This document shows, piece after piece, positions 8,583 to 40,684 of a stretch of DNA of 64,000 bases; within the stretch, counting starts at the first letter, position 1, and every line of letters starts with the position of its first letter. Source of the stretch: Escherichia phage vB-Eco-KMB43; the sequence record OR525698.1; one strand, written 5' to 3'. Both the position numbers and the translations under genes were made by a program. The notes under the pieces are model-generated. The model was not told the DNA's origin. It saw only the letters and a program-made list of their open reading frames with translations, and did not search any database.

Positions 8583-9640
8583 TGAAAATTAGTGTTATCA
8601 ATGATGCCGTTGATAGCTTTAAAGCGGGGGTTAAAACCTCCGCTGGTTTTACCTCAAAAAATAAAGGGAAAACATTAACCGCTCAATTCCCCGCTGAACG
8701 TGCTAGCGGTAATGATGCTAGCGGTTATTATATCAACGACTTATATAATAATGGTCTGTTATTCACTGCATACGATTACACCTCTCGTACTACTGGATCG
8801 CTGCGTGATTTCAGGAAAAAGAAAAATGTTGCTAGCGGTTTTGGTGGTAGCGTTAATATCGCTGGTTTTGATTTAAATTTGGGTGGGAGAAATGCTGCAT
8901 TTGACCGAGAGGCAATTGCTAATATTCTTCTTCCTCGTAGTCAATCTGACGTTGACGCTGCCAGCCATAAGTTTAATGATGTTGGTGAATCTGTTATTTC
9001 TCGCGGCGGTGGTACTTTAGGCGGTGCTCTTTCTAATATGGCATCTACTGCCGTTTTTGGTGGTATCGAAAGTATTACTGGTGGATACCTTGCCGATCAC
9101 GGTGAACAGATTTATAATACTGCGCGAAGCATGTATGCGGGTGCTGATGCACGAACTAAAAACTACGTATGGCATCTAACCCCACGTAGTATTGAAGACC
9201 TTCGCAATATTCTGATCATATACGAAACGTTTTTAGAATTGTCTTATGGTTCTAGTGGCATTTCCAGCACCGCAAAAGAATTAAAAGCGGAAGTTGATGC
9301 GTGGTATAAAAATACACTATTGAGAAAATCCACCCCAGAGGAAGCGAAGAGAAATGATACTCTGTTTGAAGGGATCACCGATTTTCTATCAAACGTAATT
9401 ACTGTATCTAACCCGACAATATGGATGATCTCTAACTTCGGCAAGCGTACATCGTTTGAAGGGCGTAGCGATGCATTTGGTCCCGCTCAGATCTCAAGTG
9501 TACGTCTGGACAAGTCGCCTGATGGTAAGTTTAATGGCCTTGCTATTTCTCCTAACTTGCCGAGTACCTTTGTTCTGGAAGTATCATTTAGAGAGATCTT
9601 GACACTTTCCCGTGGTACTATATTTGGGAGTGCGGCATAA
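8582..9640 (+). CDS. 48: baseplate tail tube cap gp48
   Basis: 352 aa ORF at conserved position, start overlaps upstream stop. Confidence 0.8.
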   Translation: MKISVINDAVDSFKAGVKTSAGFTSKNKGKTLTAQFPAERASGNDASGYYINDLYNNGLLFTAYDYTSRTTGSLRDFRKKKNVASGFGGSVNIAGFDLNLGGRNAAFDREAIANILLPRSQSDVDAASHKFNDVGESVISRGGGTLGGALSNMASTAVFGGIESITGGYLADHGEQIYNTARSMYAGADARTKNYVWHLTPRSIEDLRNILIIYETFLELSYGSSGISSTAKELKAEVDAWYKNTLLRKSTPEEAKRNDTLFEGITDFLSNVITVSNPTIWMISNFGKRTSFEGRSDAFGPAQISSVRLDKSPDGKFNGLAISPNLPSTFVLEVSFREILTLSRGTIFGSAA

Positions 9641-10089
9641 TGTTTGATTTAAATGACTTTAACGAACAAGCCGCTAACCTTGACTTTCAGCGATCGAACT
9701 TATTCAGCGTGGCATTTGCCACCACTCCAAGTAATAAGACACAAGCGATCCTAGAAAGTATGGGTGGTGCGGTATATGATATTATACCAAATGCATTAAA
9801 TGACTATTTCGGGATTACTCGTGGTGATTATACTGACGCATTAACAAATCTTGCTGTGCAGGGTGTTAGGCGTGCTGTTGATTCATCTGGTGTCAAAAAG
9901 TATCTTTTAGGTGCAATGTCATCCCGCGTAGTTCAATCTCTTCTGGGGCAATTTGATGTTGGTACATATGCGCTTGACTGGTTCAATCTGGCATATAAGA
10001 CAAGCGGTCTTCTGGTGTATGCTGTTAAGGTTCCAGAAAACAGATTGAATTATGAAATGGACCGTAACCACAATGCGCCAAACATTCGA
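9640..10089 (+). CDS. 54: baseplate tail tube initiator gp54, N-terminal segment (residues 1-150)
   Basis: Collinear with T4 gp54 up to ...PENRLNYEMDRNHNAPNIR; reading frame then diverges and stops at 10170. Confidence 0.8.
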
Positions 10090-10466
10090 TTAATGGTAAG
10101 TGTCTGGAAGAAAAAGATGGTCTTAAGCTGTCTGATGTGTATATTTGTACAGAGACTGAATTTACTTTAAATGGTAAAGTCTTTAAATTTAAAAATCCAA
10201 TGTATACTTCTGACCCCATTATCGATGACGCTGATTTCTTGAGTCATCATTATCACGATCCTAGTGTAGACTTCCATGATTTCCCAGCTTTTATTATGGA
10301 TTGGGCTACAGGATTAAGAAAAACTATTGCACTGGATACACCGGAAGGTACTATCTATGGTGGAATTAACATATTGGATCGCCTATCATGAATGACGCAT
10401 TAACATCATTTCGCGGGATGCGCAAGGAAGCGGAAGAAAACCCGATTGATAAACTTAACAAATTAG
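10090..10466 (+). other. intervening sequence interrupting gene 54 (candidate group I intron or other excised element)
   Basis: Removing 377 nt (or 380 nt, 10087-10466) joins NIR to INGRDFDPLVLSFRMD in frame, matching the contiguous T4 gp54 sequence; 3' end is G. Confidence 0.6.
10137..10391 (+). CDS. open reading frame inside the gene 54 intervening sequence (~100 codons open, function unknown)
   Basis: Frame open from 10083 to TGA at 10391 in AT-rich DNA; weak RBS; same frame as gp54 C-terminal segment. Confidence 0.3.
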   Translation: MYICTETEFTLNGKVFKFKNPMYTSDPIIDDADFLSHHYHDPSVDFHDFPAFIMDWATGLRKTIALDTPEGTIYGGINILDRLS

Positions 10467-10949
10467 ATAAACGGACGTGATTTCGATCCGCTTGTATTGA
10501 GCTTTAGAATGGACTCTAGCGCATCAAACTATCGAGCAATGCAGGATTGGGTTAACTCAGTAGAAGACCCCGTTACAGGGCTTCGTGCGCTTCCTGTTGA
10601 CGTTGAAGCAGATATTCAGGTTAACTTACATAACCGAATGGGAGTTCCTCACACGATCATGATGTTTAATGGTTGTGTTCCTGTTGGTGTGAGTGCACCG
10701 GAATTAACCTATGAAAATAACAACGAAATAACAACATTCGATGTTACTTTCGCATATCGTTCTATGCAAACTGGTGCTGTAGGAGAGCAAGCCGCGCGAG
10801 AATGGATTGAGGATAAGGCAATAAACGCAATAACAAACACTTTCGGCAATAATTTACTTGATAGTGGGTTATCTGCTGCTGGTAATGCTTTATCGCGTCT
10901 AAATGGCGTTGGTGGGCGTGTGGTGAATACTGTCACTAACTGGTTCTGA
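10467..10949 (+). CDS. 54: baseplate tail tube initiator gp54, C-terminal segment
   Basis: INGRDFDPLVLSFRMDSSASNYRAMQDWVNSV... collinear with T4 gp54 C-terminal half; no good own start or RBS. Confidence 0.8.
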   Translation: MNGRDFDPLVLSFRMDSSASNYRAMQDWVNSVEDPVTGLRALPVDVEADIQVNLHNRMGVPHTIMMFNGCVPVGVSAPELTYENNNEITTFDVTFAYRSMQTGAVGEQAAREWIEDKAINAITNTFGNNLLDSGLSAAGNALSRLNGVGGRVVNTVTNWF

Positions 10950-10958
10950 TAATCGAAA

Positions 10959-10984
10959 GGCGGGGATTATCCCCGCCTTTTTAT
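10959..10984. terminator. bidirectional terminator between gene 54 and lipoprotein gene
   Basis: Hairpin GGCGGGGA-TTAT-CCCCGCC followed by TTTTTATTTT. Confidence 0.65.
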
Positions 10985-11466
10985 TTTGCTAAATCATTGC
11001 AATATTTTAGTGCCTTAGTTTGAAATTCTGCGCTGTTAAGTTCTTCATAACGGTCATAATCACCGTTTAATGCTGCTTTTCTTGCTTCTTGCTCTATCTG
11101 CATGTCAGACATGATAATACAGCGATCCCGTGCTTTCATCTTCTCAAGTTGTATAAACTCTTCTTTCTGTTTGCGCAATTCTTCTTGACGCTTCTTTTCT
11201 TCTCGTGCTTTCTCTTCCCGCGCTTCTTTGATTGCATCCTTGAACATCTGCGTTTGTGGTGCTAAACCAACTTTAACGCGACCCACGTCTCGACGTTCCA
11301 TTTTAGAAATAAAGCATGATTCGATCTGATCATCACTTGCATATGCTGCTTTACATTCACGAAGCAAGAAAACCGGATCTGATTTAGCATTCATCATAGC
11401 TTCCATGTTAGCACAACCAGTAAGCATGAATGCAGACGCAAGACCAATTAGTTTAATCATTTTCAT
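10981..11466 (-). CDS. putative lipoprotein (signal peptide plus lipobox LTGC)
   Basis: N-terminus MKMIKLIGLASAFMLTGC, charged coiled-coil-like body. Confidence 0.6.
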   Translation of the reverse strand: MKMIKLIGLASAFMLTGCANMEAMMNAKSDPVFLLRECKAAYASDDQIESCFISKMERRDVGRVKVGLAPQTQMFKDAIKEAREEKAREEKKRQEELRKQKEEFIQLEKMKARDRCIIMSDMQIEQEARKAALNGDYDRYEELNSAEFQTKALKYCNDLAK

Positions 11467-12287
11467 TTAGTCACCTCACCGAAAATTGTAAATTGTCTAC
11501 GATTCTCATCGCCGAAAGATTCTACTACGTCGTTTACCTTGACGCAAGTCCCGCGCGGTAAAATTACTTCACATTCGCAAGGATTCCATGCAATTGACCC
11601 AACAACAAAACCTTTATGATCTTTTACGTCAATTACCCACGATACATTACAAGAATGTTGCATCTTTCCGGTCATCGATTCATATCGATTCTCACAATAA
11701 AGGCTAGTGCTGTTTGATAGCCATCCTCCAAAGATGATCGGTGTCATGCTGGTCGATACAAAGTTTTTAAAGGTAAACTCCTTATCTTCAATGATGCGCT
11801 CTATTGTCTGAATGTCAAGATGTTGACCGCGATAAAGAGTACCGTTTAACTTTTCGGTTTTATCCATGACACAATCCATCAAATCGACAATCTCTGATAT
11901 CTCGTCGGTCATGTCTTCTTCCCCTAAGAGAGCACCATTTACCCATTCGTATTGTTCAGATACATAATCACAGATTGCATTATATTCTGCTGGGGTTATG
12001 TTGTTATGTTTGTAATGTTTGAATACATTATCTCCAAAGTCTTCGGAATGTACTTCATACATCACATTAATGATTTTCTTGACAAATCCATAATCTTGTG
12101 TCTCGCGCTCAAGGAAGCGGATAACCTTCACATAATCATCAAAGTTAATCTGATCGCTGATCATCTCAGTGATCATGTAACCATTAATCCCCTCAATGTC
12201 ATATGTTTCAATATAATTGTCCATACGTTCCATCATTGATTCGCGTGATTCTTCCGAAAGACGAAAATCCTGTAATTTCTTGAACAT
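11463..12287 (-). CDS. Alt-like ADP-ribosyltransferase domain protein (paralog of alt)
   Basis: R-S-E type motifs LYRG, FKNFVSTS, ECEVILPRG shared with the adjacent Alt. Confidence 0.7.
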   Translation of the reverse strand: MFKKLQDFRLSEESRESMMERMDNYIETYDIEGINGYMITEMISDQINFDDYVKVIRFLERETQDYGFVKKIINVMYEVHSEDFGDNVFKHYKHNNITPAEYNAICDYVSEQYEWVNGALLGEEDMTDEISEIVDLMDCVMDKTEKLNGTLYRGQHLDIQTIERIIEDKEFTFKNFVSTSMTPIIFGGWLSNSTSLYCENRYESMTGKMQHSCNVSWVIDVKDHKGFVVGSIAWNPCECEVILPRGTCVKVNDVVESFGDENRRQFTIFGEVTK

Positions 12288-12307
12288 TTTAAACCTCCCA
12301 TATAACA

Positions 12308-12340
12308 GAAAACGGGGCTAGTATAAAACTAGTCCCCGTT
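12308..12340 (-). terminator. terminator after alt
   Basis: Hairpin ACGGGGCTAGT...ACTAGTCCCCGT with flanking A-run on plus strand. Confidence 0.55.
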
Positions 12341-12366
12341 TGAGTCAACCATTATTTCTTAAAAAA

Positions 12367-14418
12367 TTACATTTTAAATTTATCTGGCATTGCGTCTACA
12401 GATACCAGATCAGCGATAAGCTGACGTAGAGTTGCCTTATCTGCTTTCTTACGTTCGGTTTTAGCTTCGCTAATGAAGCTGGAGAAAGACAGGTCAGAAG
12501 CAGGTTTAATAACACCTTCACGGATGAATGCATCACCGTCTGCGATCATCTCGCCAGATTCTTGTAATGCTGCCAGTTCATTTTTGTTCATAATATGTGC
12601 CTCAATGTAATAAGTTTCTTGTGAATCCGTCGATGCCGTAGCACGAGTTACCGTATCAAAGGATAACACAACACCGCGAGGAAGTAAAATCTCGCATTCT
12701 TTGTAAGCAAATGCTTTGTTACCTACTGGCAACACAGGGATGTTTTCCGCGCCAGCAATGGAGAAAGCAACATTAGCGCCACCTTCACCGCGAGAGCCAG
12801 CCATAGAATCAACACCAGCAACGGCACTAGCCACGTTTGCATTCCAGCCGCCAAAAATGTTAGGTGCAAGGGAAGTGCTCACATAGTTTTTAAAGTAAAA
12901 CGCTTTTTGCTTACGTGCAGTTTCCCACATTTGAGTCCGGAAGTCCATACCACGATACAGAATAGTACCCGGATCAAGTTTAACGCCATAGTTGGAGAAG
13001 GCATTATCCAGTGCATCGCACATCTTGACCAATTCTTCTGGATCTGCGATGCCTTCAAACTCTTCCAGCTTACGATCAGTTAGGAAGTTGTTCATATTGA
13101 TGTATGCTGCATCGGCATATTCGCTCAATACAAAACCTTCCGCGCCCGGCAGATCAAGATCAATATCTGCCATCATTTCACCCATGTTGCTAGCAATTGC
13201 TTCAAACATACCGGAAGCAACATTACGTAGGGCATCGGTTTTAATCTGGGTGATATGACTACGCAGCATTTCAGCTTTTACATCTGCTGGCATAGACTGG
13301 TCTACTCGATCCATTGCCAGGGCGGTGATCTTGTTTTCGAATACTTCCTCGCTCATGATTTCTTTTAAGCGTTTGATTGATGCTGCGATAACTTCCGCAG
13401 ACAACGGATCATATTGATCCTGAACTTTTACCAGTTCGCTTACTGCGTATTTTGCATCTGCTTCGCTTTCAAAAATAGTACGCATGAAACCATAGCGAGT
13501 GATAATATCACTTGTCCAGTCATTCAGAGAACGGGCGGTTGAACGTTCTAATGCTTGACGATCAATCAGAGTATTAAACTGTTTCTTAGGTTCGGCTTCG
13601 GTGATATCTTCTTCCGGTTTAAGATTAATTTTTTCTGGATGATTCACATAGTCGCTGTTATAGGTCGCTTGAGTTTTCAGCATTTCTTCTTTAGTCAAAC
13701 GAGATTTAGCCGCTACGCGTTGTTCTGCTTCCGCGTTTCGTTCTTCTTCTGACACAAGACTAGCCGCATACGCCTCATCTTTAGTCAGAGATTCACCAGT
13801 AGCCTTAGATACCCAGCGATCACCTAAATCACTTTCTACTTTAGTGAACAAGGATTCATCAAGTTTAATCCCTTTAATCTTATCAATCGCCATCCCGCGA
13901 CGCTTGACAACAACTAAAGCGATCTTTTTGCTGGTCATTACTTCCTGCTGGAATACTTCAAACTTCGGTGTACGACGCACCAAACGCTCTATAACGCGCT
14001 TAACCAGTTCGGTCTTACCTTTCATGCGGGATACGTTAAAACGGAACATAACAGCGTCTAATTGCGCTTTACGGGCTGTTTCCATAACCACATCAAAAGC
14101 ACTTGCCATAACTGCAATCGGGTTATCTCCTAGACCATTTTTAAGCTGTACAATACGACCGCTTTTGTTCATTTCGCACAGTACAACATGTGCGGTCTTG
14201 TCACCCATACGAATGATTTTAGGTGTTTTGTTGGTGAAGTTACAAAGACGGACAATCACATCTTTATCGCGTGTCTGTACTGCAAAAAGCTGTTTAGGAT
14301 TCTGCTTAGGCTTTAAGCACTGTACCGGAGCAATACTGCCAAAGTTTTCTTCCTCTTCCGTCAACAGCCATTTCTCGAAAGATTCAATCATTAGATCGTC
14401 GATTTCTAAGTTAAACAT
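12367..14418 (-). CDS. alt: Alt ADP-ribosyltransferase (head-packaged)
   Basis: 683 aa, T4 Alt size; motifs ILYRG, FKNYVSTS, YKECEILLPRG. Confidence 0.85.
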   Translation of the reverse strand: MFNLEIDDLMIESFEKWLLTEEEENFGSIAPVQCLKPKQNPKQLFAVQTRDKDVIVRLCNFTNKTPKIIRMGDKTAHVVLCEMNKSGRIVQLKNGLGDNPIAVMASAFDVVMETARKAQLDAVMFRFNVSRMKGKTELVKRVIERLVRRTPKFEVFQQEVMTSKKIALVVVKRRGMAIDKIKGIKLDESLFTKVESDLGDRWVSKATGESLTKDEAYAASLVSEEERNAEAEQRVAAKSRLTKEEMLKTQATYNSDYVNHPEKINLKPEEDITEAEPKKQFNTLIDRQALERSTARSLNDWTSDIITRYGFMRTIFESEADAKYAVSELVKVQDQYDPLSAEVIAASIKRLKEIMSEEVFENKITALAMDRVDQSMPADVKAEMLRSHITQIKTDALRNVASGMFEAIASNMGEMMADIDLDLPGAEGFVLSEYADAAYINMNNFLTDRKLEEFEGIADPEELVKMCDALDNAFSNYGVKLDPGTILYRGMDFRTQMWETARKQKAFYFKNYVSTSLAPNIFGGWNANVASAVAGVDSMAGSRGEGGANVAFSIAGAENIPVLPVGNKAFAYKECEILLPRGVVLSFDTVTRATASTDSQETYYIEAHIMNKNELAALQESGEMIADGDAFIREGVIKPASDLSFSSFISEAKTERKKADKATLRQLIADLVSVDAMPDKFKM

Positions 14419-14460
14419 TTTATATCCTCTAGTTGATAACCTATAAACCTATATTTATGA

Positions 14461-14480
14461 AAAAGGGGCTTAACGCCCCC
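14461..14480 (-). terminator. terminator (GGGGC-TTAAC-GCCCC hairpin family)
   Basis: AAAA upstream on plus strand gives T-run on minus strand. Confidence 0.55.
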
Positions 14481-14485
14481 ATTTA

Positions 14486-14698
14486 TTATAATGCACCATC
14501 GAGCAATTGCTCTAAGGTGTATCCTGAATAGTCTTTTTCAATCAGGATATATTTTCCTACTCGTTTAATACAACCGCGCATTTCAACGTATTCTGCGTAG
14601 TTGATGGTGCGAGTTGTTCCATCTTCCAGTAATGCAGTACCGATTTCGTTAATGCGGTCATAAGTTACGTCGGTAATGATGATTTCGATGTTAGCCAT
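14486..14698 (-). CDS. hypothetical small protein (70 aa)
   Basis: ORF with AAGGAG RBS, preceded by early promoter, followed by hairpin terminator. Confidence 0.5.
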   Translation of the reverse strand: MANIEIIITDVTYDRINEIGTALLEDGTTRTINYAEYVEMRGCIKRVGKYILIEKDYSGYTLEQLLDGAL

Positions 14699-14734
14699 TT
14701 GATACTCCTTAGTAGTTCGTTTCGGTATGGGTGT

Positions 14735-14763
14735 ATTATGATATACACCCTCTGTTATGTCAA
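14735..14763 (-). promoter_or_regulatory. early promoter, PeSL-like (TTGACA ... CATAAT)
   Basis: -35 TTGACA and -10 with palindromic element, upstream of 14486-14698 ORF. Confidence 0.5.
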
Positions 14764-14769
14764 CAACTT

Positions 14770-14949
14770 TTAGAACATTTTTGAAATCAATTCTGCTTTG
14801 ATTTCGCAGAGAACATCTAAAGATTTCTCGTCACCTGCTTTTGCTGCTTCTGCTTGCATTTTTGAAATGGCTTCAATGTCGGTGCAATTATAAGCCGCTT
14901 GAACTTTAGCGATTGCGATGATTGCCGATTCGATGGTTAAGTGTTTCAT
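14770..14949 (-). CDS. hypothetical small protein (59 aa)
   Basis: ATG at 14949 behind a PeSL promoter and GGAGAATCAA leader; below ORF-track cutoff. Confidence 0.4.
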   Translation of the reverse strand: MKHLTIESAIIAIAKVQAAYNCTDIEAISKMQAEAAKAGDEKSLDVLCEIKAELISKMF

Positions 14950-14981
14950 GTTTGATTCCCCTTTCGTTTCGGTATGTGTGT

Positions 14982-15011
14982 ATTATAGGGGATCACCGAT
15001 CCCCCTGTCAA
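14982..15011 (-). promoter_or_regulatory. PeSL early promoter (TTGACA-GGGGGATCGGTGATCCCC-TATAAT)
   Basis: Consensus -35/-10 with GC stem-loop in spacer. Confidence 0.6.
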
Positions 15012-15022
15012 CAACTTTTTAG

Positions 15023-15538
15023 TTATTTTTTTAATTGCTCATCTTGCAATAGGGCAATCACATGCTGGCGATGTTCTTCCGATTGAGGCACACCGAAAAA
15101 GTTTGTTTTGTAGAAATACTCTAATCGGTCTTCTCGTGTGCTCTCTTCCATCATGATCGCGGGTAGTCCGAGATTTCGGAAACGTCGCTTTTCTGCTGGC
15201 GTAAAATCACTGTAATACAACATAGAATCATCATTACCAGCAATGCTAAACTCATCCTTCATAAAGGAGAATATTGCGTTTAAACGCTGTTTACCGTCCA
15301 CGATTTCGATCTCATAGCGAGAGCCATCATCAATCTTAGCCATTGCGATAGCACCGACCGGAAAATCATTAATCAGGTTTTCGATAAACATACGTTTGTT
15401 TTCGGTGTCCCATACCAAAGGACGCTGATAATCTGGGTTCATGTTGATATAGCCATCTTCTAACCATGCTTCGTAAACAGAGATGACAAAGTTTTTAGTA
15501 TTGGTATAGTAACGGCGTTTAGGCGTTAAACGGTTCAT
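15023..15538 (-). CDS. DUF262 / ParB-like nuclease domain protein
   Basis: Motifs DYQRPLVWD and VDGKQRL (DGQQR-type); start at ATG 15538 with AGGAG RBS. Confidence 0.65.
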   Translation of the reverse strand: MNRLTPKRRYYTNTKNFVISVYEAWLEDGYINMNPDYQRPLVWDTENKRMFIENLINDFPVGAIAMAKIDDGSRYEIEIVDGKQRLNAIFSFMKDEFSIAGNDDSMLYYSDFTPAEKRRFRNLGLPAIMMEESTREDRLEYFYKTNFFGVPQSEEHRQHVIALLQDEQLKK

Positions 15539-15539
15539 G

Positions 15540-15872
15540 TTATAGTCTCCTGAATGGATCATCACGTAAATCAATATCTTTTAAGAACTCATCCCATGAA
15601 TGGCGGATATTGTTCTTAATTCTCCAGATAAGCGCAGGGATTGAACGCTCTCCCATCTGGAAGTATGGATCATATGATCCGTATGCCCAATATGCTACTA
15701 CAATTCCACAATCAGCGCAATAGTATTCTATTTCACTTGCTGGCGACCAAAGTCCATCAATATGATCGGTGATCTTGCTTTCGATGTTATGGCTATGACA
15801 ATCAGGGCAACGGATGCAATGACCTTGTTTATCGTAATTTGACGTTAGCGAATACTTAAACAATCTCATCAT
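15540..15872 (-). CDS. zinc-ribbon protein (CxxC...CxxC)
   Basis: CIRCPDCHSH ... YYCADCG cysteine pairs; coupled to flanking genes. Confidence 0.5.
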   Translation of the reverse strand: MMRLFKYSLTSNYDKQGHCIRCPDCHSHNIESKITDHIDGLWSPASEIEYYCADCGIVVAYWAYGSYDPYFQMGERSIPALIWRIKNNIRHSWDEFLKDIDLRDDPFRRL

Positions 15873-16585
15873 AGATCCTTATTTGCTTCAAATACTGCCT
15901 TTGCGAATCCTCGCGGGGTAAGTGACCTGATAGTCTTTGTTTTCGTTCCTTTCCCGCCTAGCTTAGAATGCTGTTTACTGTACCCTTTATTAATCTGCAA
16001 AGGTTTCTTTTCTGGCATTATAAAGCCTTGTCCGGTCCATAAGCAAGTCTTTTTCGGGTACATATCACGGGCGGCGATATACTCAGGAAAAGTAGGATGT
16101 TTATCATCTTCCGGCAAATAACCGCCATATTCCCACGGATGGAACATATAATCAGGCTTACGCCACATGCTAGAGATAACGCTTACAGGATTCTCTATCA
16201 TGTAGGGAACTCCTAGCCATTCACCCAAATAAGCGGTTATTTTAGCTGCCCGTACATCATGAACTTGAATCAATGGTCCTTGCTCTCGTTTCTTTCGTTC
16301 AAAGTGTGCAGCGCCACTAACAGCTAAATTGGTGCACGGTGGGAATGCAAAGATAATATCCGGTTTCCCCCATTCAAGGTCCATTGCTCTTTCCAGCCAG
16401 TTCAAATCAATCCAGGTGTTTACATAGGTAATGTTTGGATGTTCAAATCTGGTATTATACTTTTTGTATGTACCGTGGTCGGCGTCATCCGCATTAAAGC
16501 AGACTACCTTATGACCTGCTTTAGCCCATTCTAGCCCCATTATCCCCGATCCGTCAAAGTTACAGAATATTAATTTTTGTTTCAT
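15869..16585 (-). CDS. minimal C5-cytosine methyltransferase-like protein (238 aa, no obvious target recognition domain)
   Basis: Motif I-like FDGSGIMG, motif IV AFPPCTNLAVSG, motif VI ENP, motif X-like LTPRG. Confidence 0.55.
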   Translation of the reverse strand: MKQKLIFCNFDGSGIMGLEWAKAGHKVVCFNADDADHGTYKKYNTRFEHPNITYVNTWIDLNWLERAMDLEWGKPDIIFAFPPCTNLAVSGAAHFERKKREQGPLIQVHDVRAAKITAYLGEWLGVPYMIENPVSVISSMWRKPDYMFHPWEYGGYLPEDDKHPTFPEYIAARDMYPKKTCLWTGQGFIMPEKKPLQINKGYSKQHSKLGGKGTKTKTIRSLTPRGFAKAVFEANKDL

Positions 16586-17144: not shown

Positions 17145-17158
17145 CACTTTTTATAAAA

Positions 17159-17326
17159 TTATTTGTTAATTTCCGGTGCGTTGCTAGGATAGTAACCTTC
17201 TTTAACTCCGAGGTATTTCGCAACCATCCCTACAATCTTCTGTGCTACTACAATGTCAAATTTCAGATAATCTTCGCCGTGGGTTTCAATGATATATGCT
17301 TCACATGCTGCTTTAGTCTCGAACAT
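17159..17326 (-). CDS. hypothetical small protein (55 aa), paralog of 20780-20947
   Basis: MFETKAACEAY...NAPEINK; near-identical copy elsewhere; PeSL upstream. Confidence 0.45.
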   Translation of the reverse strand: MFETKAACEAYIIETHGEDYLKFDIVVAQKIVGMVAKYLGVKEGYYPSNAPEINK

Positions 17327-17359
17327 TTTGATTCTCCTATTTCGTTTCGGTATGTGTGT

Positions 17360-17388
17360 ATTATAGGGGATCTCCCGATCCCCGTCAA
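17360..17388 (-). promoter_or_regulatory. PeSL early promoter (TTGACG-GGGATCGGGAGATCCCC-TATAAT)
   Basis: Consensus hexamers with stem-loop spacer. Confidence 0.6.
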
Positions 17389-17404
17389 CAACTTTTTTTT
17401 AAAA

Positions 17405-20776: not shown

Positions 20777-20779
20777 CTA

Positions 20780-20947
20780 TTATTTGTTAATTTCCGGTGC
20801 GTTGCTCGGATAGTAACCTTCTTTAACACCCAGATATTTTGCGACCATTCCGGTGATCTTCTGTGCTACTACAATGTCAAATTTCAGGTAGTCTTCACCG
20901 TGGTTTGCTACAATGTATGCTTCGCATTCTGCTTTAGTCTGGAACAT
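20780..20947 (-). CDS. hypothetical small protein (55 aa), paralog of 17159-17326
   Basis: MFQTKAECEAY...NAPEINK; PeSL upstream. Confidence 0.45.
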   Translation of the reverse strand: MFQTKAECEAYIVANHGEDYLKFDIVVAQKITGMVAKYLGVKEGYYPSNAPEINK

Positions 20948-20981
20948 TTTTGATTCTCCTATATCTCGTTGGTATGTGTGT

Positions 20982-21010
20982 AGTATAGGGGATCACCGAT
21001 CCCCTGTCAA
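20982..21010 (-). promoter_or_regulatory. PeSL early promoter (TTGACA-GGGGATCGGTGATCCCC-TATACT)
   Basis: Same stem-loop spacer as the 14982 copy. Confidence 0.6.
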
Positions 21011-21017
21011 CAACTTT

Positions 21018-21326
21018 TTATTCTTCATCTTCATCTTTATCTTGATATGCGTACGTCATAAATTTGTCTGCTACTTTGTCCGCGTTTTCAGGTTCTACGT
21101 CTGACGCTAGGACAACAGCTAGTTCTGTTTTGTCGTTTCCATCATACCAATGATTATGAGTGTCGTTTTCTTCGATATAAAACGAATCATTTGGAGTTGT
21201 GCGACAATATACGTCTAAATTCCCATCGATATAAAAGATCCAATCCGAATACAAAATGATTGTTTTAGCAAGATTTTTATTGCCTTCAACGAAAGGTTCG
21301 GCTACAAACAAATTAGTATGTTCCAT
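21018..21326 (-). CDS. HxHW-motif small protein family member
   Basis: THNHW ... VVLASDVEPENADK; start ATG 21326 with GAGGAAAAA RBS. Confidence 0.5.
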   Translation of the reverse strand: MEHTNLFVAEPFVEGNKNLAKTIILYSDWIFYIDGNLDVYCRTTPNDSFYIEENDTHNHWYDGNDKTELAVVLASDVEPENADKVADKFMTYAYQDKDEDEE

Positions 21327-21929: not shown

Positions 21930-22109
21930 TTACATAACAATTACGCCAGCCGTTGAAAGTTGATGTTTCAACTGAGCATTTTCTGCTACTGTCAAATCAA
22001 TGATTTCTTGTGACGCTGCAATCATATAGCCATTGGTGATATTGTTTTGCATCAGTTCAATGGTTTCTTCGTTGTAGCGGATTTTAGCGATGATTTCGTT
22101 GAAGTTCAT
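21930..22109 (-). CDS. hypothetical small protein (59 aa)
   Basis: ATG 22109 behind PeSL; MNFNEIIAKIRY... Confidence 0.4.
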   Translation of the reverse strand: MNFNEIIAKIRYNEETIELMQNNITNGYMIAASQEIIDLTVAENAQLKHQLSTAGVIVM

Positions 22110-22143
22110 AATTGATTCTCCTAGTTCGTTTCGGTATGTGTGT

Positions 22144-22173
22144 ATTATAGGGGAGTTTAACCTCCCCTGTCAA
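22144..22173 (-). promoter_or_regulatory. PeSL early promoter (TTGACA-GGGGAGGTTAAACTCCCC-TATAAT)
   Basis: Consensus hexamers with stem-loop spacer. Confidence 0.6.
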
Positions 22174-22181
22174 CAACTTTT

Positions 22182-22493
22182 TTAAAGTTTTTCCATGATA
22201 ACGGTCATAATTACATCTTCTGCGCGAGCGGTCAGATTATCAGCGTCAGCATGTGGGCGGTTGGTTGTTACAGAGATAACACCGTTGCGCACTGGTTTGA
22301 TATTGATATCAAGATGATCCGCGAAACGTTCGCCAGTTACAGAATGAATTTTGGTGTTAAATTCTTTTGCCAGTGCCTTGCGAACTTCACGAATCAGGAT
22401 AGCGTTTTTCAGTTGGTTCTCCGCGCTCATGGTCTTCTGAGTGTTCATGGTTCCGTCGAAGTCAATCATTGGCAGCGTTACGATGTATTTCAT
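22182..22493 (-). CDS. hypothetical protein (103 aa), AKEFN-motif pair with 19013-19300
   Basis: Shared motif REVRKALAKEFNTK; PeSL upstream. Confidence 0.5.
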   Translation of the reverse strand: MKYIVTLPMIDFDGTMNTQKTMSAENQLKNAILIREVRKALAKEFNTKIHSVTGERFADHLDINIKPVRNGVISVTTNRPHADADNLTARAEDVIMTVIMEKL

Positions 22494-39660: not shown

Positions 39661-40684
39661 TTACAGATTCAGAAGTGAGTCCAGGTCATCCAGATCAGAA
39701 GCGGAGGAAGTACCGCCACCCAGATCCAGCGATGCCATCAGGTCATCAGCGGAAGAATCTAACGCCGTGCTAGCTGCGTTAATACCAACTACAGTGCTAG
39801 CTGCGGTAATACCAGAATCGAATGCATTCATCTGTGCGTCAAAATCGTCAAGCTGGCTGTTAATCGCTGCCGCAGCACTGGAAGCCGCAGCGCCAGCTAC
39901 CATAGAAACGCCCATAGTTTTCTTAAATTTGGTTTCCAGTTCATCGAACGGTTTAAACTGGCTAGGCGCTACAATCTCACCCAGATCAACCATGTTTTCC
40001 ATCAGATATTTCTGATATGCTTCGTCTTCAATTTTCGGAAGCTGTGATTGCTGCATGAAACGAGAATCATCATAGTTCTGGTGTTTATCAACCTTCTTAG
40101 CTTTCAGGAGGAAGTTAGCACCGGAGAACACACAAGTTACATCTACCGGAACTTCGCCCATGTCGGTATTCACGTTCACCATTGCAACGATCTTATCATA
40201 AATTTTCTGACCGAAGCGGAATTTGAATACCTTACCTTCATTTTCTGGTGCTTGAGGATCTTTCAGTACCAGAATATTTGCGTAGTAAGACGCTTTACGC
40301 TTAATCAGTTGCCATTCGGTTTTATCGGTATTGTACAGGTCTTTTTCGTTAATATATTTGCACACAGGGCAAGAATCAAAATCACCGTGGGTGCTGGAGC
40401 AGTTTTCCCAATACCATTTGCCATTAACTTTGAAGGAATGGTTTACCAGTTTCACAATCGGCAGACCGTCTTCTGTCTTAGACGGCAGGAAGCGAATCAG
40501 GGCTTCACCGTTACCTGCTGCATCAGTCTTAATCTTCCACTCTTTCGGATCTTCTTTGGAGAAACCGTTGCCACCTTTCAGTGTTAATCTTCCACTCTTT
40601 CGGATCTTCTTTGGAGAAACCGTTGCCACCTTTCAGTGAGGCCAGTTGAGCTTGCAGTTTGGAAGAATCTTGGCGTTTAAACAT
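39661..40684 (-). CDS. 32: single-stranded DNA-binding protein gp32, reading frame disrupted by 55 bp tandem duplication
   Basis: ATG at 40684 ([23 protein letters not shown]...) matches T4 gp32 N-terminus; frameshift inside the duplication gives a stop; remainder of gp32 is in the ORF-track frame 39661-40629. Confidence 0.85.
40529..40638 (+). repeat. perfect 55 bp direct tandem duplication (2 copies) inside gene 32 5' region
   Basis: 40529-40583 identical to 40584-40638; 55 is not a multiple of 3, so gene 32 is frameshifted. Confidence 0.95.

Follow-up and report, generated by a model that had tools for sequence, protein, structure and literature searches.

Alt, ModA and ModB of phage T4 are the textbook example of a virus seizing its host through ADP-ribosylation, and the RNAylation carried out by ModB has brought them back into view. 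Alt is an injected, arginine-specific mono-ADP-ribosyltransferase (ART); ModA and ModB are small free-standing ARTs of the R-S-E type, encoded at the srd-mod locus behind an early sigma70-type promoter. The stretch of DNA considered here, referred to as the window, comprises 64,000 nt of Escherichia phage vB-Eco-KMB43 (OR525698.1), a T4-like coliphage of the RB49 type (Krischvirus), and all coordinates are window positions. Beside a full-length alt gene it carries a second, short ART gene (sART), whose product corresponds to the C-terminal catalytic module of Alt and which, on the reading favoured here, would be expressed early in the infected cell to give an enzyme working much like ModA and ModB.

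In T4 the prohead protease gp21 cleaves Alt at ITE-6 and LTE-619, the second cut taking off 63 C-terminal residues (PMC5694885; PMC9026906). T4-type phages often encode short or split Alt-like proteins: T4 alt.-1/alt.-2, ORF187c/188c of Aeromonas phage 44RR and the 'split' Alts of Acinetobacter phages are, like sART, products of alt duplication or splitting at the alt locus. T4 alt.-3, named in the CmdTAC paper, is unrelated to the genes of the window. The counterpart of sART in phage RB49, whose DNA has unmodified cytosines, is RB49ORF183c (RB49p183; NP_891754), which was annotated in 2003-2006 and is described in GenBank as 'similar to C-terminal part of T4 Alt protein'; Nolan et al. 2006 remarked of RB49ORF183c, 44RRORF188c and T4 alt.-1/alt.-2 that they 'appear to be paralogous duplications' of alt (PMC1524935). 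RB49p183 and its orthologs in phages phi1, JSE and GEC-3S are the same gene as sART, alike in position and neighbours and without substantive difference, and several records of later date show the locus as a pair of ADP-ribosyltransferase genes plus a 'putative lipoprotein'. As an annotated member of the R-S-E superfamily and a recognised alt paralog, sART is therefore already known; the literature yielded no experimental work on RB49p183. Nothing in what follows will surprise a T4 specialist, and neither fold nor chemistry is out of the ordinary. Four points seem to be newly stated: how exactly sART corresponds to Alt in its domains (with both processed termini missing), how strong selection on it is, how deeply the promoter/terminator cassette and the ART-lipoprotein pairing are conserved, and how the number of ARTs parallels that in T4.

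The locus consists of three genes:

12367-14418, minus strand: alt, 683 amino acids (aa), assigned from the open reading frame (ORF) list, PHROG 802, comparison with T4 Alt and synteny.
11463-12287, minus strand: sART, 274 aa, the counterpart of RB49ORF183c/RB49p183 and a free-standing Alt-type catalytic module.
10981-11466, minus strand: lipoprotein gene, 161 aa, assigned from the ORF list, its lipobox and PHROG 16112.

The stop codon of sART and the start codon of the lipoprotein gene overlap by 4 nt (ATGA). The original prediction for this DNA had proposed tandem ART genes, and the intact ORFs and the Pfam and PHROG matches of both products bear this out; the observation is far beyond chance. 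Pfam PF03496 (ADPrib_exo_Tox) matches both proteins, Alt with E 2e-9 and 37.5 bits and sART with E 4e-16 and 59.3 bits, both scores lying over the cut-off of 23.4. sART belongs to PHROG 15144, 'ADP-ribosyltransferase' (E 3e-198, 274/274 profile positions), and the alt product to PHROG 802, 'Alt-like RNA polymerase ADP-ribosyltransferase' (E 3e-179). An alignment of the two ART domains, which had been suggested as a check, gives 37% identity over 109 aa by BLASTP (E 7e-17), and the aligned stretch takes in LYRG, FKN(Y/F)VSTS and ECE(I/V)(L/I)LPRG. The motif set claimed as common to both proteins (LYRG, FKN(F/Y)VSTS, ECE(V/I)(I/L)LPRG) is thus real, and its coordinates were re-translated in each: LYRG, STS and ECE occupy residues 487-490, 514-516 and 574-576 of Alt and residues 151-154, 178-180 and 238-240 of sART. 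The catalytic codons are placed as follows:

12691-12954, minus strand: catalytic triad codons of Alt, R489 at 12952-12954, S514-T-S516 at 12871-12879 and E574-C-E576 at 12691-12699.
11568-11831, minus strand: catalytic triad codons of sART, R153 at 11829-11831, S178-T-S180 at 11748-11756 and E238-C-E240 at 11568-11576.

Both proteins show the features by which R-S-E enzymes are recognised, namely an Arg in strand 1 (xxYRG), a Ser-Thr-Ser and the Glu of E/Q-x-E. The triad columns are invariant across an alignment of five Alts; R153, S178-T-S180 and E238/E240 are likewise invariant in alignments of the sART family, in relatives down to ~41-48% identity. The sARTs also share an invariant stretch of their own, FGGW..NSTS..CE..Y. 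The sART fold is predicted with confidence and is of the C3/VIP2-like mixed alpha/beta kind; a sequence search found no solved structure of Alt or sART. Since sART keeps the R / S-T-S / E-x-E residues for NAD binding and catalysis and a C3/Tre1/Vis-like fold, it should very probably be an active mono-ADP-ribosyltransferase, and the E-x-E motif makes arginine the probable acceptor. RNA polymerase alpha would be the first candidate target, solely for the descent of the domain from Alt; the original prediction had suggested a target other than that of Alt, which is plausible. The bacterial R-S-E (ARTC) toxins Tre1, Lmo0066, C3bot2 and Vis are just 19-24% identical to sART, in which an N-terminal three-helix extension is extra; the setting of sART is a phage early operon, whereas these toxins belong to secretion-system or toxin-immunity contexts.

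In hhalign, residues 65-273 of sART align with Alt 395-610 (probability 99.9, E 9e-33), and identity to the catalytic module of T4 Alt is 31.5% over 181 aa. For residues 1-64 (to 66) hhalign finds no counterpart in sequence anywhere in Alt (E 0.56), a value that also leaves unsupported the idea that they are the Alt N-terminus kept after an internal deletion. The PHROG 802 profile, over its positions 330-602, is aligned with sART 8-268. Foldseek fits the whole sART model onto the last ~290 residues of Alt structure predictions (TMq 0.81 for SP18 Alt and 0.75 for the 'split' Alt of Acinetobacter phage ZZ1), with residues 1-64 lying on the helices that precede the ART core. Because of this whole-model superposition and the profile alignment, sART is best seen as the C-terminal catalytic module of Alt in its entirety, ~395-610 as judged by sequence and ~330-610 as judged by predicted fold, with no foreign N-terminus. 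The 'different N-terminal region' of the original prediction therefore stands in one respect, the missing sequence match of residues 1-64, and falls in another: nothing has been swapped, the N-terminal half of Alt being absent and the residues in question superposing on Alt helices. What sART is without is that N-terminal half (about 330-394 residues) and the last ~70 residues of Alt. It ends ~10 residues before the aligned C-terminal processing site, and both gp21-processed termini of T4 Alt fall in the regions that it is without. With the N-terminal region and the C-terminal propeptide of Alt absent, sART is, on these alignments, a paralog of the Alt catalytic module and not an Alt ortholog.

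Selection on the locus was estimated from eight Krischvirus genomes (the window, RB49, GEC-3S, W115, SSG23, JSE, Brandy and JK32). The ratio of non-synonymous to synonymous polymorphism (pN/pS) is 0.042 for alt, 0.062 for sART and 0.135 for the lipoprotein gene, and sART differs from its counterparts in RB49 and GEC-3S by 17-18 synonymous and 0 non-synonymous changes. It is a live gene under strong purifying selection. These values bear on the notion that sART, like T4 alt.-1/alt.-2, is left over from a duplication of alt, is decaying and does not function as an enzyme. N-terminal alt remnants do lie at the same position in T4, and RB49ORF183c was grouped with them by Nolan et al. 2006, but the T4 pair has kept the N-terminal part of alt and is without the ART domain, whereas sART is the ART module only. 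Zero non-synonymous changes against two genomes, a full-length frame, R/STS/ExE residues invariant down to ~41-48% identity, a conserved promoter and Shine-Dalgarno sequence of its own and a confident fold make a remnant scarcely credible. Loss of catalytic residues or a pseudogene fragment would have undone the original prediction for the short ORF; neither is found, and with a pN/pS of 0.062 the pseudogene or fragment is effectively refuted.

A megablast search with 10900-14500 matched 58 phage records over the full length, at 98.4-98.9% identity, and every one of them is a Krischvirus (among them RB49, phi1, JSE and GEC-3S). sART is present in 58/58 of these at 97-100% aa identity (100% to RB49, phi1 and GEC-3S), and among other cultured phages no full-length match at E < 1e-25 was found. 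Metagenomes reach further: a search of 5.8 billion proteins gave homologs of the same length at 83, 63, 48, 44 and 45% identity, and an exhaustive search of 1.84 billion representatives gave 87 homologs, three of them sART-type clusters and most of the others full-length Alts of 600-710 aa. In a rough neighbour-joining tree the sART clade lies outside the clade of full-length Alts, which holds both the neighbouring Krischvirus Alt and T4 Alt, and sART reaches 88 bits against T4 Alt and only 67 bits against its own neighbour. The tree position and the higher score to T4 Alt are indicative of an old split between sART and Alt or of fast divergence afterwards. The contigs with the 44, 48 and 45% homologs carry alt (668 aa), sART, a lipobox protein of 155-167 aa and the convergent genes 54/48/29 in that order, all retain the sART/lipoprotein stop-start overlap, and the order alt, sART, lipoprotein gene, convergent gene 54 is constant wherever a metagenomic contig reaches that far.

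The larger of the two ARTs is, to judge by its alignments, a full-length ortholog of T4 Alt. T4 Alt (NP_049811) and the window protein are 26.6% identical in 695 columns (residues 31-681 against 15-679, E 1e-60), PHROG 802 covers residues 16-683 with profile positions 2-674 of 674, and the gene lies between gene 54 and the upstream early genes, the same as in T4. Two further features belong to it:

12559-12567, minus strand: L618-Q-E620 of Alt, a putative C-terminal gp21 site, aligned with T4 LTE-619 among five Alts.
14452-14480, minus strand: upstream of alt, a terminator hairpin GGGGGCGTTAAGCCCC with a T-run (14464-14480), then CATAAATA (14452-14459), from a terminator scan and folding.

The 63 residues after LQE-620 form a conserved tail, ..DGD..G...F..F....P.KF, and the first N-terminal [LI]xE is LTE-21; from its alignment with the T4 site, LQE-620 would be cleaved in the window protein too. 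By homology with T4, the alt product would enter the prohead, lose both its ends to the prohead protease and be injected together with the DNA. CATAAATA agrees with the T4 late promoter TATAAATA at 7/8 positions and stands 33 nt before the alt ATG, making it a putative late promoter of alt. In T4 a hairpin is followed by the exact TATAAATA, 28 nt before the ATG, and in a distantly related contig (L008) hairpin and AATAAATA lie upstream of alt, so that a hairpin followed by (C/A/T)ATAAATA is conserved at this place in the window, the contig and T4. Locus, terminator and late-box layout, C-terminal site and tail are thus all common to T4 Alt and the window Alt.

The regulatory signals around sART are of a different kind:

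12305-12360, minus strand: promoter/terminator of the PeSL type between alt and sART, from a promoter scan, with an AT-rich stretch, a -35 box TTGACT at 12343-12348, a 17-nt spacer and a -10 box TATACT at 12320-12325.
10955-10981, both strands: bidirectional intrinsic terminator, common to the sART-lipoprotein operon and the convergent gene 54, from a scan (dG -20.5 kcal/mol).

The promoter matches the sigma70 consensus at 10/12 positions. A hairpin at 12310-12341 (dG -18.9 kcal/mol, z = -5.5) overlaps the -10 box and is followed by TTTTCTGTT, and a Shine-Dalgarno sequence, GGGAGG, stands 7 nt before the sART ATG. The GEC-3S record annotates a promoter exactly at this intergenic site and a terminator on both strands at the counterpart of 10955-10981; in a search of 9500-15200 against Rfam nothing but the terminator was matched, and that below threshold. 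Across four lineages the intergenic motif TTGAC(A/T)-nn-AACGGGG...TTTTATACT..CCCCGTTTTCT varies hardly at all. Over its ~42 nt the element TTGAC(A/T)nnAACGGGGnnnAGTTTTATACTnnCCCCGTTTTCT is almost invariant in the four, in which the flanking proteins are just 41-48% identical, and where lineages differ in the upper stem the pairing is retained. An element more conserved than the genes on either side of it is strong evidence of a functional role.

PeSLs are defined as a strong sigma70-like early promoter with a terminator stem-loop between the boxes or over the -10, and other RB49/phi1 copies have shown promoter and terminator activity in reporter fusions (PMC2839356). The alt/sART element has every part of this description in its sequence, with an AT-rich stretch, TTGACT-17-TATACT, a stem-loop on the -10, a Shine-Dalgarno sequence and an ATG, and it shares its architecture with the PeSL cassettes of RB49/phi1 (Arbiol et al. 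2010; Comeau et al. 2014). It differs from them in that its sequence is not among the repeated copies of the window in a self-BLAST and in that it has been kept in place across distant relatives while other PeSLs have been shuffled; the main text of PMC2839356 makes no mention of it. The repeated copies are intergenic sequences of ~75 nt, 85-90% identical to one another, at 14735-14763, 14945-15020, 17324-17397 and 22105-22183. They carry a consensus TTGACA-17/18-TATAAT with a G/C-rich stem-loop in the spacer and are evidently PeSL cassettes of RB49/phi1. A dispersed repeat of 244 nt in the early region (17158-17397 and 20779-21019, 87% identity) may be a duplicated small gene with its PeSL.

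The locus would then be transcribed as two separate units, a late alt and an early sART-lipoprotein operon ending at 10955-10981. A transcript starting ~7 nt after the -10 box would be without the left arm of the hairpin and hence would not terminate there, and one arriving from alt would contain the whole hairpin. Since sART is without the processed termini of Alt and has an early-type promoter, it would most likely be made early in the infected cell: unmodified host RNA polymerase would transcribe it in the first minutes, and the enzyme would modify host proteins from inside the cell. Taken separately, early expression appears likely, and it is somewhat likely that sART is not a virion component. 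For the reading as a whole, that sART is an early-made, free-standing and probably arginine-specific ART resembling ModA and ModB in its working, we put the probability at about 0.55. The original prediction had left the choice open with the words 'injected or early'; the conserved sigma70-type promoter/terminator and the absence of both processed Alt termini favour early, and injection has less support.

Several points tell against this preferred reading. Packaging is compatible with early transcription, and in T4 the genes for internal proteins are likewise already transcribed ahead of the late period. The N-terminus of sART, MFKKLQDFRLSE, is loosely like the capsid-targeting sequence MKTYQEFIAE of T4 IPIII, and its L-S-E at residues 10-12 has the form of a gp21 cleavage site. 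The late box before alt is a match at only 7/8 positions, the hairpin may weaken transcription without stopping it, in which case late read-through from alt into sART is possible, and a ModA-like role leaves the tight coupling to the lipoprotein gene unexplained. The literature on Krischvirus yields no expression, proteomic or enzymatic data.

Some of these points would fit a second injected effector, targeted to the prohead core by an N-terminal propeptide of its own and cleaved in the manner of gp21 after L-S-E12. An [LI]xE lies within the first 13 residues in 5/7 members of the sART family, which is weakly suggestive against a background of ~1.8-3 per 100 aa, but it is absent in the other two (P0006 and P0009). 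T4-type phages package diverse proteins by means of short N-terminal targeting peptides (PMC9026906), and a loose pattern resembling a capsid-targeting sequence picked only seven ORF starts in RB49 and the window, including those of the prohead proteins gp22 and gp24 and that of sART; this pattern was designed partly from sART itself, and the test is to that extent circular. Both propeptide regions of Alt are absent from sART, its first 66 aa are unlike any part of Alt in sequence, and the conserved early-type promoter and terminator separate it from the late alt transcript. Injection of sART is on balance unlikely.

The early, ModA/ModB-like role preferred here is one of working and not of descent. 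sART resembles T4 ModA and ModB by functional analogy, as a small free-standing R-S-E enzyme that has a putative early sigma70-type promoter and would come into action after Alt, and differs from them in lying at the alt locus instead of the srd-mod locus and in descending from the Alt catalytic module. BLASTP gives E 5.0 against T4 ModA and no match to ModB, and orthology to either is ruled out by the lack of sequence similarity and by the position of the RB49 Mod gene elsewhere. That gene, RB49p014, is a single Mod-type gene of 167 aa next to srd (L005, 8917-9420; LYRG...ERE), closer to ModB (33% identity over 113 aa) than to ModA; T4 has modA and modB where RB49 has one. A phage of the RB49 type would thus possess three ARTs, as T4 does, with a different third enzyme, and if sART works like ModA/ModB, one of the three would be injected and two made early. 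Should the targets of sART differ from those of Alt, the pair would offer a natural experiment on the evolution of ART specificity after duplication.

A lipoprotein gene immediately downstream had also been predicted, and it is there, with a canonical lipobox LTGC in codons 15-18 (11413-11424) and Ala at +2. The signal peptide MKMIKLIGLASAFMLTG, followed by the lipobox Cys, conforms to [LVI][ASTVI][GAS]C, lipidation is predicted and the mature protein is probably targeted to the outer membrane; homologs have the forms LLTGC, SLFGC and MLNGC. The protein is PHROG 16112, of unknown function. Four of its alleles gave no Pfam match above the cut-offs, and neither NCBIfam nor PADLOC gave a match for Alt, sART or the lipoprotein. 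Its translation would be coupled to that of sART in one operon. Among cultured phages it occurs in the same 58 Krischvirus records only, in two alleles, one in 50 records at 89-97% identity and the other in eight records at 26-29%, with the adjoining sART at 97-100%. This pattern, noted for the window gene and that of JK32 (L015, 3422-3934), looks like cassette replacement or diversifying selection, as would be expected for a surface or exclusion protein.

The constancy of this pairing could point to a functional module, for instance for superinfection exclusion, envelope remodelling or anti-defence, in which the ART would be tied to the lipoprotein and not to a ModA-like takeover. The two genes co-occur strictly, in 58/58 Krischvirus records and in every metagenomic contig reaching far enough, they share promoter, terminator and a conserved stop/start overlap, and allelic variation of the lipoprotein beside a nearly invariant sART is of the kind commonly seen in proteins that are exposed to the host surface or to rival phages. 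On the other side, sART is without a signal peptide and hence cytoplasmic, the lipoprotein is exported and no physical link between them is evident, unrelated small early genes are often co-transcribed in the hyperplastic regions of T4-type phages, and the lipoprotein has no recognisable domain. Such a module is a doubtful proposition. We hold as tentative, and less improbable than that, a reading in which the sART-lipoprotein pair is a conserved early module of the RB49-like clade and the Alt-derived domain has taken on a new task, either standing in for ModA as a non-orthologous replacement or acting on a new class of substrates. The latter might be a host defence factor, an envelope-biogenesis factor or RNA, and the invariant loop NSTSLYCENRY beside FGGW might then be the new specificity determinant; if all this were true, it would describe a takeover toolkit of several ARTs built by duplicating and truncating an injected enzyme.

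Apart from the ART genes, the window departs from RB49 and from all 58 Krischvirus records in the neighbouring tail genes. A segment of 541 nt at the junction of genes 28 and 29 (RB49 106954-107494) is missing at ~7092. Of this segment, 386 nt (99.2% identical) sit inside gene 54 at 10087-10472, as the sole copy in the window, and the remaining 158 nt are absent. The insert splits gene 54 (region 9640-10949) into three ORFs. A group I intron in gene 54 is ruled out, Rfam being negative and the insert being the relocated piece of gene 28/29. As the rearrangement would inactivate the essential baseplate/tail genes 28, 29 and 54, the likely explanation is misassembly, a defective genome or an artificial rearrangement.

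Among the upstream early genes, those at 15023-15574 and 15869-16585 include a DUF262-type protein (W115 annotation) and a DNA methyltransferase (GEC-3S and RB49 annotation), which may have anti-restriction or epigenetic functions. Elsewhere in the window, a perfect tandem duplication of 55 nt near the end of uvsW (2795-2849 and 2850-2904) is without counterpart in RB49, where 102711-102765 is aligned twice, and a near-perfect (98%) overlapping tandem repeat of 61 nt lies at 40523-40583 and 40578-40638.

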